This document shows positions 39,301-54,300 of a DNA stretch of 64,000 nt, one piece after another. How positions within the stretch are numbered: position 1 is the first letter of the stretch; the number at the start of each line of letters is the position of its first letter. This stretch comes from Escherichia coli (GTDB lineage Bacteria > Pseudomonadota > Gammaproteobacteria > Enterobacterales > Enterobacteriaceae), in the NCBI RefSeq assembly GCF_024700885.2, contig NZ_CP117016.1. One strand, written 5' to 3'. The position numbers are program-made.

Positions 39301-42300
39301 GGTGTACTGGAACAGACGGCCCGGGCTTACATTGAAATCACATGGTGCCATTGAACGTCATCTTGGGTGTAGTGACTTTTAACGTCAGGTGATGCATAAG
39401 GGTCTTTCGCGGAGAGGCCCTGTTTACACAATTAAATAAGTCGAGTCCTCTAGGCTGGGCTGTGTGCACGCCCCCCCGTTCAGCCCGACCGCTGCGCCTT
39501 ATCCGGTAACTATCGTCTTGAGTCCAACCCGGTAAGACACGACTTAACGCCACTGGCAGCAGCCATTGGTAACTGGATAGTGGATTTAGATACGCAGAAC
39601 TCTTGAAGTTGAAGCCTTATAGCGGCTACACTGGAAGGACAGCATTTGGTATCTGTGCTCCATCAAGCCAGTTACCACAGTCGATTAGAAGAGGTCGAAG
39701 ACTTCTAATCGGACGGAAAAAGCCGCCGCAAGGCGGCTTTTTCCGTTTACAAGCCGAAGATTACGCGCAGCTTAAAAGGATCTCAAGAAGATCATTTTAA
39801 TTTTGCTGATCGTTGCGCCCTACCAGTGACCATACGGATAGGGCTTTTCCTTGATAAAATCGCGGATAAATGGATCGTAACCGTTAGCCTTGATGTAACT
39901 GAAATCAATCTTGTTGGGAACATTTTTGCATATCAGCATATCATCTCCCGTCAGGGTGAACTGTCGGGCAGGATTCTGGAGTACAACAGGATTACGATTG
40001 TCTTTTAACCATACCCTGACTTTACCACCGGGGGGCAGGCCAATAATCATTTTGTTTCGGTAATATATTTTTCCCGGACGATAAGTATCAGGATAGGCAG
40101 TCAGCATCTGCTGCCACGTATCCCGGCTGAACCAGATCTCCGTCTCATACGCCTTTTTATCGATAACTGAGTCCCAGCATACCGTCATCCTGACAGGCAG
40201 CGCCTTGCCAATATTAAAACTGGCTAAAAAACCGCCTACGTGCTGGCTCCATTTTCCCACACTGCTCTGACTGGGTTCAGTCGGATCCAGTCGCCGGAAA
40301 AAGCTCTCCCGGATATCCCCGTCCTCCAGATACACCATTGTCACCAGTGCCGGCAGATTTTTCGGGTAAAAAAATTGAATTCCCAGTGGTCGTAAGGCAA
40401 CTTCTGCCCCCATTGCTCCACGCCATCGCCCAGCAGCGTCCTCACACCAGCCCTACGGTCATGGCAGCCGACAGCCAGCATTACGCCCACTATCACGCCC
40501 ACCATCAGCGGTAATCGTCTCATTCCTGCCTCCTCAGAACAGTCCATCCAGCGCGCCTTGCGACGCCCCCGCCCGGTCCGCCATTGAGGTGTAGCCGAGC
40601 ACCGGCACAAAAAAGGCGCGAGCGCGCCATTGTGTCGTCACTAAGGAGTGTTCAGGAGGTCAAGCCCGGCGCCTGATTTTGCAGACGCGAGGAAAAGAGA
40701 CCGCGAAGCCCGGTGAACGACAAGGGGATGTAATGCGAGCCATCTTCCAGATTAGCAACCCGGTTCATATATCAGTAAAATACGGTCGCGCTCCCCTCCC
40801 CCTCTTTGCACAAAGGTATGAAAATGTATTCAGATCACCAACGTAGTTATCTGGCCCACTGGTTGACGTTAAGCGGCAAAGCCGAGGACTCGCTGACGCA
40901 AACTATTGCCAGCGCACGGGTTGATATGAATCCTCATCAGGTAGAGGCTGCGATGTTTGCGCTGGCATCTCCCCTGTCGAATGGCGTGATCCTGGCCGAT
41001 GAAGTGGGACTGGGGAAAACTATTGAGGCCAGCCTGATTTTGGCGCAAAAATGGGCTGAACGCCGCCGAAAACTGTTGCTGATTGCACCCGCAACGCTAC
41101 GCAAGCAGTGGAGCCAGGAGCTGGAAGAGAAATTTTCGCTGCCTTCACAAATTATTGAAGCGAAGATCTTCAATCAAATGGTTAAAGAGGGGAGCGATAA
41201 TCCCTTTGATATTGAAAATGCAACCGGGAAAGCGGCGATCTGCATTTGTTCATACGAATTCGCTGCCCGTAAAGAGCACGAGCTGGCACGAATCCCGTGG
41301 GATCTGGTCGTCATGGATGAGGCGCATAAACTGCGTAATATCTACAAGAACGATGGCGCTAAAACAGCCAAAAAACTCAGTGGCGCACTGTCCGGCAGAA
41401 AAAAAATACTGCTTTCCGCCACGCCGCTACAAAACAGTATTCTTGAGCTTTACGGCCTGATTTCCGTGATTGATCCTCATTTTTTCGGCGACCTTGCTTC
41501 GTTCAAGGCCCGTTATTCCCGACAGAATATTGACGATGCAGAACTGGCATTATTAAGGGTTCGTCTGAATAAAATCTGTAATCGAACGCTTCGTCGACAG
41601 GTTCAGCAGGAAGGCGGGATCAGTTTTACCCGACGCCATTCAATAACCGAAGACTTTCGTCCGACGGAAGACGAAGAAGTGCTCTATAAACAGGTTTCCT
41701 CTTATTTGCAGCGGGACGATCTACTGGCGATCAAAAGCGGCGCGCGTCACCTAGTAACGTTAGTCATTCGTAAAATTCTGGCCTCATCGTCTACAGCGAT
41801 CCAGGGAACGCTGGAAACGATGATCCACCGTCTTGAAAGTAAAATGCCGGTGCTGGATGCGCTGACGGATTATGAAAATTACGACGATTACAGCGATGAA
41901 GAAGGCATTGATGACGAAGATACCATCGATCCTCAGGCGCTACAGGCCGAAATTGACCAGTTAAAAAATTATAAGACTTTAGCGGCATCGATTACCAAAA
42001 ACGCCAAGGCCGAAGCACTGTTACGCGTTCTCGATCGGGCCTTTACCTTTACGGCTGAACTGGGCGGATTACGTAAGGCGGTCATTTTTACCGAGTCCGT
42101 ACGCACCCAGACCTGGCTGGCGCAACTGTTGTCAGAAAGTGGCTACGAGGGAGAAGTGGTTCTGCTCAATGGCAGCAATAGCGATGCGGTGTCGAAGAAG
42201 ATTTACAGCGACTGGCTGGAGAAACATCAGAACTCTGGCCGGGTTTCCGGTTCGAGCACGGCGGATATGAAGGCAGCGCTGGTTGAAAAATTCAGGGACG

Positions 42301-51300: not shown

Positions 51301-54300
51301 GTATTGAATATACTAATGGTAGAAACTATGAGCCGGATTTTGTGGTTGAAATGAACAATGGGTACTGTCTTATTGAACCGAAAAAAGCCAATGAAATCGA
51401 TACTCCTGAAGTTCAGGCCAAAACACGGGCAGCCCTGCGCTGGTGTGAATTTGCCAATCAGAATGCAGCAAAGAATGGCGGAAAAGTATGGAGATATGCG
51501 CTTATCCCACATAATGAAATTGAATTAAGTCGCACAGTTTCAGGGTTAATGGCTGATTTTATGATGACAAATAGTTTATCAGCATAGTAGCAGCCCACCG
51601 GAGTTGTAATTAAAAACCATTCCGAGACATTGCGTTGCTGTTTCGGGATGGTTTAGCATAAACAATGAGTAAAAAATGAATACAGAAAGACCGCTCCCTC
51701 AAAAGCAGAATCTTTATAAGACCATGTGGTATTTAATATTCAGCGCAGAGAGATTTGTAACTATCGCTGCCGAAAATTCAATGGCCTTCGAACTTGAACA
51801 TGAAGAGTATAAACGAAAACTTGCCGAGAGGAATTATAGTATTGATCCCAAAGTTCATGTCCACTCTCATCCACAAAGGCTGAAAGACCTGCGAACTTTA
51901 TTACTCAAGACAACGGGTTGTATTTTGAGTGTAATAATCTTAATAGTAGGTATTGGCTTTTATACTTGAAGTGGCACACTGAATTTGGCCACCTGAACAG
52001 AGGTGATATGCTCACCTCAGAACAACACAGGTGCTCCAATGAAAAAAAGAAATTTTAGCGCAGAGTTTAAACGCGAATCCGCTCAACTGGTTGTTGACCA
52101 GAAATACACGGTGGCAGATGCCGCCAAAGCTATGGATGTTGGCCTTTCCACAATGACAAGATGGGTCAAACAACTGCGTGATGAGCGTCAGGGCAAAACA
52201 CCAAAAGCCTCTCCGATAACACCAGAACAAATCGAAATACGTAAGCTGAGGAAAAAGCTACAACGCATTGAAATGGAGAATGAAATATTAAAAAAGGCTA
52301 CTGTAGATTCAATCTGTCAATGCAACACCCCTTTCAATTATCTCTTTCGGTGTTTTGAACTTCAGTGTCTTTCTCGGTCTGTTGTTTAGCTGAGCAGCAA
52401 CCAGATCTAGTTCATGTTGAGTATATTGGGCAAGACATGTCTTTTTAGGAAAGTACTGCCGAATTAGCCCATTTGTGTTCTCATTTGTTCCCCGCTGCCA
52501 AGGACTCTGAGGATCGCAGAAGTAAACTTTAACGCCGGTGCTGACAGTAAATTCTAGATGTCTGGCCAGTTCCATTCCTCTGTCCCATGTCAGTGATTTT
52601 CTGAGTTCTGACGGTAAACTCAGGAATTTGTCGGTAAGAGCCTGATTTACTGAGACAGAATCTTTGCCCCTGAGTCTAAGGATGATCGTATAACGTGATT
52701 TTCGGTCTACAAGTGTGGCTATATGAGAGTTTTTTGTACCTGAGACTAAATCGCCCTCCCAATGCCCCAGAGAGCGTCTGTTATCGATATTTCGGGAACG
52801 TTCGTGAATTGGTGTTCCGTTCACTATGTTAATCGTACCTCTTTCGCCTTTGCGGGTATGACGCCTGCCATGGCGAAGGCTATGCGACCGTCGCAGATGC
52901 TGTATATTCAGGTGGTGTAGCGCTTCACGGCTACGAAAGTACAGCGTTTTATAAATTGTCTCAGGTGATATTCGCAGCGTTTTTTGACGTGGTTTTGTTC
53001 GCCTTAACCATCCTGATATTTGCTCTGGAGACCATTTCATCTCCAGCTTTTCCAGAACAAGCTTTCGCAATGGCAAATTTTGATCCAGTAAGCACGGTTT
53101 TGGCCTTTTCGCCATTCTGTTGGCTCGGTTATTAGCATCAACAGCTTTGTAATAGCGTCTGCCCCGATTACGCTGAACTTCACGTGAGATCGTCGAAGGA
53201 CTGCGATTCAGCGCAGTAGCTATCGCACGAATGCTCATTTTGGCTGACAAACCAGCTCGTATCTCCTCGCGCTCAGACAGTGTCAGGTGAGCTACAGCCC
53301 GCTTACGCTCATGGGGTTTTATGCCGCCAGTATCCCTTAACATAGTGAAGATCGTTCCGGGTTTTGAACCCAGGATATTCGCTATTTCACTGAAGCCTGT
53401 TCCGTTCTTCCATAGTTCAAAAACAGAGGCTTTTTCCTCTGCTGTAAATGTTCGTCTCATTCAAAAAACCTCCGCAACCCCATGTTTTCACATAACTGTT
53501 GCGTTGACCAATTGAATCTACAACCGCGCTCTTGATGTCAGACTCCCTGAACAGTTCTCGATAATCGGGAAACTCAGAGCGCATTATCCTGTGGTCACAC
53601 TCTGCCATGTGTTCGGGGTTCATCGCAGCAGCTACAGATACTGGAAAAACCGTCCTGAAAAACCAGACTGCAGACGGGCTGTATTACGCAGTCAGGTACT
53701 TGAGCTACATGGCATCAGCCACGGTTCGGCCGGAGCAAGAAGCATCGCCACAATGGCAACCCGGAGAGGCTACCAGATGGGACGCTGGCTTGCTGGCAGG
53801 CTCATGAAAGAGCTGGGGCTGGTCAGCTGTCAGCAGCCGACTCACCGGTATAAACGTAGTGGTCATGAACATGTTGCTATCCCTAACTACCTTGAAAGGC
53901 AGTTCGCCGTGACCGAGCCAAATCAGGTGTGGTGCGGTGATGTGACCTATATCTGGACGGGTAAGCGCTGGGCGTACCTCGCCGTTGTTCTCGACCTGTT
54001 CGCAAGAAAACCAGTGGGCTGGGCCATGTCGTTCTCGCCGGACAGCAGGCTCACCATGAAAGCGCTGGAAATGGCATGGGAAACCCGTGGTAAGCCCGGC
54101 GGGGTGATGTTCCACAGCGATAGTAATAATGCCGATGTCAGTCTTTACCACCACTTAGTTTGCCGTTTAACCAGATTGGTGTGATTACTGATGCAGTGAA
54201 GACCTGAACCGCCCCGGAAATCCTGGAGACTAAACTCCCTGAGAAAGAGGTAAACAGGATGACTAAAAATACTCGTTTTTCCCCCGAAGTCCGTCAGCGG

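Follow-up and report, generated by a model that had tools for sequence, protein, structure and literature searches.

A five-gene Escherichia coli cluster as a candidate SNF2 helicase-Type III restriction-modification backbone carrying IetAS as embedded cargo

The five-gene cluster

The subject of this analysis is a cluster of five genes in a 64,000-nucleotide (nt) stretch of the Escherichia coli contig NZ_CP117016.1 (the window, whose position numbers are used throughout). An earlier interpretation of the window, here called the sequence-only reading, had described five co-oriented genes packed like one operon, encoding an SNF2 helicase, an AAA+ ATPase, an S8 peptidase, and the modification (Mod) and restriction (Res) subunits of a Type III restriction-modification (R-M) system, and had proposed them as a composite or novel anti-phage system. 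We found five intact plus-strand open reading frames (ORFs) exactly where it had placed them: in their longest forms, they run from 40806-43673, 43675-44679, 44689-47076, 47086-48714, and 48717-51587. Two starts require correction. The SNF2 gene begins at ATG 40824, not TTG 40806, according to the RefSeq start on identical DNA and the consensus of its homologs, which opens MYSxHQ; the ATPase gene begins at ATG 43699 (RefSeq), which has AGGAG 8 nt upstream, not at GTG 43675. The corrected cluster therefore spans 40824-51587, and its genes are 25, 9, 9, and 2 nt apart: the last three of the gaps given earlier (1, 9, 9, and 2 nt) stand, but the first does not. As argued below, the cluster is probably one operon-like unit of two nested parts, a SNF2-Mod-Res backbone and an IetAS cargo.

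The profile searches proposed by the sequence-only reading, run with PADLOC and Pfam, gave a strong family match for each protein, and every motif that it had quoted is present in the translations. The first gene (40824-43673, plus strand) encodes a protein of 949 amino acids (aa), an SNF2-family double-stranded DNA translocase with a DrmD-like motor, which corresponds to "IetH" of the ietHAS system discussed below. It carries the motifs LADEVGLGKT, VVMDEAHKLRN, SATPLQN, and QRIGRVHRYGQ, matches SNF2-rel_dom and Helicase_C in Pfam, and, numbered from the 40824 start, has K65 as its Walker A lysine and D165 as its DEAH aspartate. PADLOC assigns the N-terminal two thirds to DrmD (668 bits); toward the C terminus, it reports a BrxHI-like match. 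In NCBIfam, SNF2 scores 662 bits against DrmD_b (NF038318; cut-off, 950) and 249 bits against NF038317 (cut-off, 610); the DrmD_b match covers the motor only (profile positions 21-640 of 868) and leaves the C-terminal 300 aa unaligned. These 300 aa are predicted to form an alpha/beta domain and a long coiled-coil hairpin in a model of the C-terminal 310 aa, whose predicted local distance difference test score (pLDDT) is 90.9; the model of the full-length protein is poor (pLDDT 63). A sequence search of the PDB with SNF2 returned generic SNF2 motors only, of which RapA was the best.

The next two plus-strand genes encode IetA (43699-44679; 326 aa), an AAA+ ATPase and presumptive antitoxin-like partner of IetS, and IetS itself (44689-47076; 795 aa), an S8 subtilisin-like peptidase and presumptive effector or toxin; we consider them the first and second embedded cargo genes. 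IetA has the Walker A and B motifs GPPGCGKT and VVLFDEFD, while IetS has the D/H/S triad motifs ILDSGI, GHGT, and GTSFAAP and the N-terminal domains Y4kK_N and Y4kK_2nd. The likeness of the AAA/S8 pair to IetAS, pointed out by the sequence-only reading, was borne out by PADLOC (IetA, 350 bits; IetS, 1206 bits), with full-length matches. Scores against the NCBIfam models fall under their cut-offs (IteA, NF042959, 267 bits versus 510; IteS, NF042956, 150 bits versus 900), which argues that the pair is a diverged subfamily of the AAA+ ATPase and S8 peptidase pair of Gao et al. 2020, a defense system that, as cited in PMC13069673, was originally a plasmid-stabilizing toxin-antitoxin pair.

The remaining two genes, also on the plus strand, are the backbone genes mod and res. 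Mod (47086-48714; 542 aa) is a predicted N6-adenine DNA methyltransferase of the beta class, as judged from its motif order, with DPPY (residue 68) before FAGSGTT (residue 336); it matches Pfam N6_N4_Mtase and the PADLOC MTase_III model PDLC03636 (967 bits). Res (48717-51587; 956 aa) combines a superfamily 2 ATPase (GVGKT and MDEAHRY; Pfam ResIII and Helicase_C) with a C-terminal PD-(D/E)xK nuclease motif (YEPDFVV...LIEPKK) and matches the PADLOC REase_III model PDLC03648 (2118 bits). PADLOC thus assigns the two proteins to the pair PDLC03636/03648, in agreement with the Type III label that they had been given; the Res family PDLC03648 is far from the other Type III Res models (≤48 bits to those). 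Res homologs down to 33% identity align from residue ∼5, which supports the 48717 start. The PDLC03648 profile itself opens only at Res residue 86, leaving residues 1-85 (48717-48971) outside, and was apparently derived from annotations that are too short at the N terminus.

Distribution in E. coli and other Enterobacterales

Of 5426 complete E. coli genomes, 73 carry SNF2-IetA-IetS and 73 carry Res. Both show the same split into 65 genomes at ≥99% identity and 8 at ∼86%, always as a single chromosomal copy; SNF2-IetA-IetS was adjacent to Res in the pairs checked, and the ∼86% variant has all five genes annotated. Many E. coli chromosomes, including those of O104:H4 outbreak strains and 55989, share a 12.5-kb region with the window at 100% identity. 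In O104:H4, the cluster belongs to an island next to tRNA-Phe and an integrase gene, upstream of pic, which fits the mobile setting that had been suggested for it. The same five genes occur in integrase-bearing islands of Providencia, Pantoea, and other Enterobacteriaceae; their order is kept there and in both E. coli variants, so the proposal of one composite unit has held up. The locus is chromosomal in E. coli, and distant SNF2-Mod-Res loci on plasmids exist. We rejected a plasmid origin for the region in the window, since a megablast search of PLSDB matched flanking insertion sequence (IS) and DUF2931 sequences only.

Conservation within these islands is uneven. In three from Enterobacterales (L087, L088, and L089), SNF2, IetA, IetS, and Res are 89-96% identical to their counterparts in the window, whereas Mod is 56-67% identical. 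Such a pattern points to exchange of the recognition domain, or of mod in its entirety, inside an otherwise conserved operon, as would be expected if the specificity of a working R-M system turns over. An N6-methyladenine motif, 5′-ACCACC-3′, has been reported in C227-11, an O104:H4 strain with an identical locus. It is short and asymmetric, as expected of a Type III Mod, and is a candidate for the motif of the Mod in the window; no assignment of it to a methyltransferase was found in the literature searched.

SNF2 with Type III Mod and Res across phyla

We scanned one genome per species for SNF2 homologs and searched the resulting 80 loci (38-70% identity) with profiles built from the window proteins. 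The loci came from Proteobacteria, Bacteroidota, Firmicutes, Actinobacteria, Chloroflexi, Planctomycetes, Verrucomicrobia, Spirochaetes, and others, and SNF2 was full length in 73 of them. Mod and then Res followed downstream on the same strand in 41 of the 73 (41 of the 55 that could be assessed). Mod was present in another 14, whose contigs end within 3.5 kb; one locus had Res only, 13 had neither Mod nor Res despite ≥4 kb of downstream sequence, and four were not assessable. Wherever Mod was seen with enough sequence beyond it, Res was always present too. The partners of SNF2 belong to three PADLOC Type III Mod/Res pairs: PDLC03636/03648, PDLC03634/03647, and PDLC03646/03654. IetA or IetS lay beside SNF2 in none of the 73 loci.

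A second scan, of metagenomes and seeded with Res, also gave 80 loci, 35 of which were too short to judge. SNF2, Mod, and Res occurred together in 36, and SNF2 lay upstream in one more (in all, 37 of the 45 assessable loci); the set was accompanied by IetAS in one of these 37. The sequence-only reading had divided the cluster into SNF2-AAA-S8 on the one hand and Mod-Res on the other. That division does not survive: the partners of SNF2 are Mod and Res in both scans, and IetAS is autonomous (see below).

The three backbone proteins also resemble those of the window to similar degrees in each lineage, with SNF2/Mod/Res identities of 72/72/69% in Aeromonas, 66/58/63% in Methylobacter, and 69/60/68% in Vibrio, and with different cargo in each. 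SNF2 proteins that are nearest neighbors have the same Res family in 28 of 40 cases, compared with 14.4 by chance, which argues for coevolution with some exchange. Order and strand (SNF2, then Mod, then Res) are strongly conserved, and stop and start codons often overlap or nearly abut (−16 to 54 nt apart in 17 loci). Such conservation of order, strand, and spacing is hard to reconcile with SNF2 being an autonomous single-gene defense or a general DNA-remodeling factor that often ends up beside defense genes of various kinds but is functionally independent of both IetAS and Mod-Res. That explanation would account for the 13 assessable loci without downstream Mod-Res and has a precedent in HmaA, a single-gene SNF2 defense reported in Halomonas (PMC11232893); since the SNF2 ATPase has in addition been linked to IetAS function (PMC13069673), we regard it as distinctly improbable.

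Compared with classical Type III R-M systems of the EcoP1I/EcoP15I type, the window has the same beta-class N6-adenine Mod followed by Res, at a 2-nt gap and with full-length PADLOC matches. It differs in that the classical systems have two genes, whereas here an SNF2 translocase lies upstream as a conserved third gene and cargo genes stand between the subunit genes. Type III enzymes hemimethylate a short asymmetric site, and their ATP-dependent cleavage requires a pair of unmethylated sites in inverse orientation.

Some loci depart from the common arrangement. In Rodentibacter rarus (L061, 3738-12859), the backbone order is Mod-Res-SNF2 instead of SNF2-Mod-Res. In Vibrio metschnikovii (L086, 13585-16795), two tandem Mod-like genes, encoding proteins of 535 and 537 aa that are each ∼60% identical to the Mod of the window, lie between SNF2 and Res. 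Putative small regulators may precede SNF2: a gene for an RHH protein in Aeromonas caviae (L082, 9777-10004) lies upstream of SNF2 and overlaps its start, as does a gene for a WYL-domain protein on the Aeromonas media plasmid pE31A (L182, 8084-8995). WYL regulators are known from other defense operons.

IetAS on its own

IetS homologs beyond the clade of ≥88% identity begin at 70% identity. Among those examined, IetA-IetS pairs in Dickeya, Klebsiella/Cronobacter, Pseudomonas, and a Vibrio cholerae conjugative element (IetS identity, 62-70%) have no SNF2, Mod, or Res nearby; related pairs stand alone in islands, plasmids, and conjugative elements. The pair in the window differs from these in being embedded in another system and in its dependence, according to PMC13069673, on the neighboring SNF2. 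The sequence-only reading had held that independent occurrence of the upstream trio and of Mod-Res would speak against a single system. Our results divide the trio: IetAS does occur independently, but SNF2 co-occurs with Mod-Res.

The one Res-seeded locus with IetAS (L163; metagenome contig ERZ761607 NODE-4259, 2-12721) has a diverged IetA-IetS pair in its SNF2-Mod slot. Identities to the window are 45% for SNF2, 58% for IetA, 40% for IetS, 53% for Mod, and 44% for Res. The recurrence of IetAS at this position hints at a preferred pairing with the backbone. Since the IetS of the window is nearer to stand-alone IetS than to that of L163, the two embedded IetAS pairs look like separate captures. 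L163 also has two minus-strand ORFs before Mod.

In the V. cholerae loci (L098/L099, 7014-14055), a Gabija-like pair comes after the stand-alone IetA-IetS pair and consists of an OLD-family ATPase/TOPRIM protein and a UvrD-like helicase. This second pair, too, lies inside the conjugative element, between recombination genes and traN/traU.

Variable cargo between conserved genes

The distance between SNF2 and Mod falls into two classes. In the species-representative set of 41 loci, the gap is ≤200 nt in 18 and 0.8-5.7 kb in 23; an insert of 0.7-6.1 kb likewise precedes Mod in 31 of the 36 metagenome loci. The Mod-Res gap is ≤109 nt in 25 of the 41 and 0.44-2.2 kb in the other 16. We therefore consider the SNF2-Mod junction, and less often the Mod-Res junction, to be candidate cargo slots, occupied by stand-alone defense modules that vary by lineage; in Enterobacterales, the slot would hold IetA-IetS, an AAA+ antitoxin-like ATPase with an S8 protease toxin.

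Over the 99 pooled loci, we counted 142 inserted ORFs of ≥100 aa, 86% of them co-oriented. They form 72 sequence clusters, 52 of which are singletons, and several have no PADLOC match. Representatives of the clusters gave matches to established or candidate defense families, namely, to HEC-01A (516 and 612 bits), HEC-01B (233 bits), HEC-06, a GmrSD-like protein (348), PDC-S02 (451), PDC-S05 (501), PDC-S06 (569), PDC-S13 (362), HerA (769), SoFic (392), AbiD (245 and 233), and AbiU (109), as well as to PD-Lambda-2_B-like, RmrA/CapP-like, and LmuB-like ATPases. The Aeromonas insert consists of an AAA_21 ATPase and a DUF4276 protein, that of Methylobacter encodes a Schlafen/AlbA_2-HATPase protein, and Vibrio inserts encode a 252-aa protein and a second methylase. 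RefSeq annotation of two plasmids gives the same impression of a constant frame with changing contents: a Deinococcus plasmid carries genes for SNF2, an AIPR protein, an HTH protein, VapC, a methylase, and a helicase, and an Aeromonas plasmid carries genes for a WYL protein, SNF2, an AAA ATPase, DUF4276, a methylase, and a helicase. Four loci (L010, L027, L034, and L046) lack any insert.

Variable, co-oriented, mostly defense-related genes between conserved genes, together with empty-slot versions of the same locus, are the pattern of a host of embedded cargo. The "guilt-by-embedding" hosts described by Payne et al. are Hma, BREX, DISARM, and Type I R-M; Type III R-M is not listed (bioRxiv 10.1101/2024.01.29.577857). 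Our loci resemble those hosts in that stand-alone defense cassettes lie in multigene, methylase-containing systems, with 86% of the cargo co-oriented here and 96.7% there, and in that the cargo families HEC-01, HEC-06, and PDC-S02/S05/S06/S13 are common to both. They differ in that the host in the window belongs neither to Hma nor to DISARM, as described next.

Relation to DISARM and Hma

The SNF2 motor finds its closest sequence relative in class 1 DISARM, in which an SNF2 helicase also lies directly upstream of an adenine methyltransferase. The cluster could therefore be seen as a reduced or hybrid class 1 DISARM, with SNF2 as DrmD, Mod as DrmMI, and Res replacing DrmA, DrmB, and DrmC. DrmD models are indeed the best for SNF2 in both PADLOC and NCBIfam, the likeness to DrmD is also noted in PMC13069673, and DISARM is a known host of embedded genes (bioRxiv 10.1101/2024.01.29.577857). 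However, the DrmD_b score is well short of its cut-off (662 versus 950 bits) and comes from the motor alone, the C-terminal 300 aa lying outside the DrmD model, and the genes that follow SNF2 give full-length matches to Type III Mod and Res models. Genes for DrmA, DrmB (DUF1998), and DrmC (PLD) were found neither in the window cluster nor among the genes following SNF2 in the related loci that we examined. A DISARM identity of this kind thus strikes us as very improbable, the least credible of the explanations considered here. Class 1 DISARM was also rejected for loci with a distant Mod and a Res recognizable at the motif level, and for loci with a methylase of ∼1000 aa, all of which PADLOC assigns to two further Type III pairs.

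Hma was rejected as well: SNF2 scores 163 bits against HmaA compared with 668 against DrmD, and no Hma model is among the top 25 PADLOC matches of Mod (all ≥50.9 bits) or the complete set of eight matches of Res. Lacking DrmA, DrmB, and DrmC, and with Hma not its best match, the locus is neither DISARM nor Hma.

Relation to ietHAS

ietHAS (Liu-DS4), composed of a DrmD-like SNF2 helicase, IetA, and IetS from E. coli, was validated recently (NAR 2026, PMC13069673; preprint 10.64898/2025.12.08.692795, in which the helicase is named AsaH). We take the first three genes of the window to be ietHAS because gene order, residue numbering, and prevalence agree: both are co-oriented SNF2-IetA-IetS sets in E. 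coli; the residues altered in the helicase mutants K65A and D165A, which abolish protection against T7, are the Walker A lysine and DEAH aspartate of the window protein; and our count of 73 in 5426 complete genomes is in line with the prevalence reported for E. coli (>1.5% of genomes). ietHAS also needs protease activity, an ietA mutant could not be cloned, and the helicase mutants are cytotoxic when induced (PMC13069673). The difference lies in extent: ietHAS was published as three genes, whereas here Mod and Res follow. In the ietHAS paper, Type III R-M goes unmentioned and IetAS is taken to have acquired the helicase; the pipeline used there excluded proteins in systems that DefenseFinder already called complete (PMC13069673). 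Independently, "RM III and ietAS" were listed among nonrandomly co-localized E. coli defense pairs, a pair that was untested there (Wu et al., bioRxiv 10.1101/2022.08.21.504612).

The sequence-only reading could assign the five genes to no named system. This was right for the five-gene unit, which we did not find described in the literature searched, but not for SNF2-IetA-IetS, which is already ietHAS. Nor did we find a description of a unit of SNF2 and Type III R-M in that literature, whose coverage excludes subscription-only papers. Relative to it, what we have not found described are the helicase-Type III backbone, its cargo slots, and the view of ietHAS as a truncated instance of the backbone.

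The co-localization could also reflect two independent neighbors, namely, a three-gene ietHAS, in which SNF2 is a dedicated antitoxin-like chaperone of IetAS, and an ordinary Type III R-M system. Defense systems commonly cluster, the association of RM III with ietAS is known only as a statistical pattern (bioRxiv 10.1101/2022.08.21.504612), and ietHAS alone protects against T7, with SNF2 mutants that lose protection and are toxic (PMC13069673). Four observations nevertheless make two neighbors unlikely in our view: Mod-Res usually accompanies SNF2 homologs (38-72% identity), whereas IetAS does so in 0 of 73 and 1 of 37 loci; the closest IetAS relatives outside the clade have no SNF2; SNF2, Mod, and Res identities drop together across Enterobacterales, Aeromonas, Vibrio, and Methylobacter despite changing cargo; and E. 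coli SNF2-IetA-IetS was never met without Mod-Res in the complete genomes (adjacency being established in the pairs checked).

A probable backbone with embedded IetAS and its proposed working

That SNF2 is kept with Mod-Res, that IetAS stands alone elsewhere, and that the slot cargo is diverse all argue for a backbone of SNF2 and Type III Mod and Res with cargo slots, in which the cargo is here IetAS and may work by a guard arrangement; we give this reading a probability of about 0.65. The same comparisons point to IetAS having been acquired by a helicase and R-M backbone, the reverse of the view taken in PMC13069673. From what is known of the family, Mod would methylate one strand of a short asymmetric host site and Mod-Res would cut unmethylated invading DNA; to judge by conservation, SNF2 and Mod-Res would act jointly on DNA. 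In the three-gene construct, IetAS protection against T7 requires the SNF2 ATPase, and ATPase-dead SNF2 is cytotoxic (PMC13069673), from which we infer that SNF2, or perhaps the whole restriction machine, is a guarded or licensing component. A phage that blocks or overloads SNF2 or the machine could then cause IetA to stop restraining IetS, and the freed protease would kill or arrest the cell.

Such an arrangement would be analogous to that of PrrC in the Type IC system EcoprrI, where a suicide effector encoded in an R-M operon is silenced by the R-M proteins and freed when a phage inhibits them (reviewed in PMC12707154). The toxicity of ATPase-dead SNF2 in ietHAS fits this logic. The two cases differ in the type of host system, the effector (a protease here and a tRNA nuclease there), and the trigger, and for our cluster a guard role is a proposal.

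Several points weigh against this reading. The three-gene construct protects against T7 without Mod-Res (PMC13069673), so SNF2 and IetAS need no R-M genes; a stalled translocase that damages DNA, rather than a guard, could explain why ATPase-dead SNF2 is cytotoxic; and it is conservation only that suggests a role for SNF2 in restriction. Mod-Res is not found downstream in 13 of the 55 assessable SNF2 loci, one of which has it upstream, and SNF2 is absent from the 4.6-8.3 kb upstream of Mod in 8 of the 45 assessable Res loci. The SNF2 phylogeny is only partly congruent with Res family. The comparison loci are best tblastn hits, many of them on metagenome-assembled contigs, and thus a nonrandom sample. 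Finally, cotranscription of the five genes is plausible from their spacing and conservation only, because consensus scans found no signal above chance (promoters, 10 sites versus 13.9 ± 5.0 in shuffled sequence; terminators, 12 versus 14.2 ± 3.6).

The favored reading would change how ietHAS is understood: all complete E. coli genomes with ietHAS extend the putative operon into Mod-Res, and its helicase looks like a Type III partner that IetAS has joined. It also points to a widespread and apparently uncharacterized three-gene form of Type III system with its own SNF2 motor, raising the question of what a second translocase does for an enzyme that already uses ATP-driven sliding. Type III-based systems would join the known hosts of embedded defense genes, and their slots, in which most cargo clusters are singletons, are a new candidate source of such genes. 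The toxicity of the ATPase-dead helicase makes the guard model directly testable, and the presence of the locus in O104:H4 and other pathogenic E. coli is relevant to phage therapy.

A broader version of the idea is more tentative, and we hold it as a possibility that is rather doubtful at present. SNF2 might be a shared hub that works with Mod-Res and at the same time licenses whatever abortive-infection cassette occupies the slot, so that phage interference fires the effector; SNF2-Mod-Res would then be a phylum-spanning, three-component R-M-like class, of which ietHAS is a truncated instance. If true, this would be an unrecognized class with plug-in second-line effectors.

Flanking DNA and transcription signals

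At 41-54% GC, the cluster is more AT-rich than the resistance region (11-37 kb; 59-67% GC), as the sequence-only reading had remarked. The IS elements and plasmid remnant that it saw on either side were also recovered: a class 1 integron, TnAs3, IS1B, and a 147-nt fragment of a replication-initiation gene lie upstream, and IS3 fragments and IS30 lie downstream. The DNA adjoining the island (∼30000-40000) comprises the class 1 integron (dfrA5, qacEdelta1, and sul1), a TnAs3-family transposon, a truncated catA-like gene, and IS1B. The exact junction of integron, TnAs3, IS1B, and island was found in one of the 5426 complete E. coli genomes, that of MLI114, a human stool isolate from Mali.

A candidate sigma-70-like promoter (TTAGCA-18-TAAAAT; 40752-40781, plus strand) matches the consensus at 9 of 12 positions and ends 43 nt 5′ of the SNF2 start. 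The region 5′ of SNF2 is not conserved in related islands.

Downstream of Res, a 97-aa ORF (51676-51969, plus strand) shares 69% identity with residues 1-97 of the 168-aa product of the post-Res gene in island L089 and is a putative truncated copy of a hydrophobic protein of 161-168 aa; it looks truncated in the window, where it lies beside the IS3/IS30 remnants. E. coli STEC1587 has a full-length copy of this gene annotated behind Res. The gene could be the sixth of a conserved set, although its membership in the system is uncertain. Farther downstream, a 1372-aa ORF (55637-59755) has the same length as pic, the serine-protease autotransporter gene downstream of the O104:H4 cluster; its distance from Res and that of pic from Res in O104:H4 are ∼1.2 kb apart.

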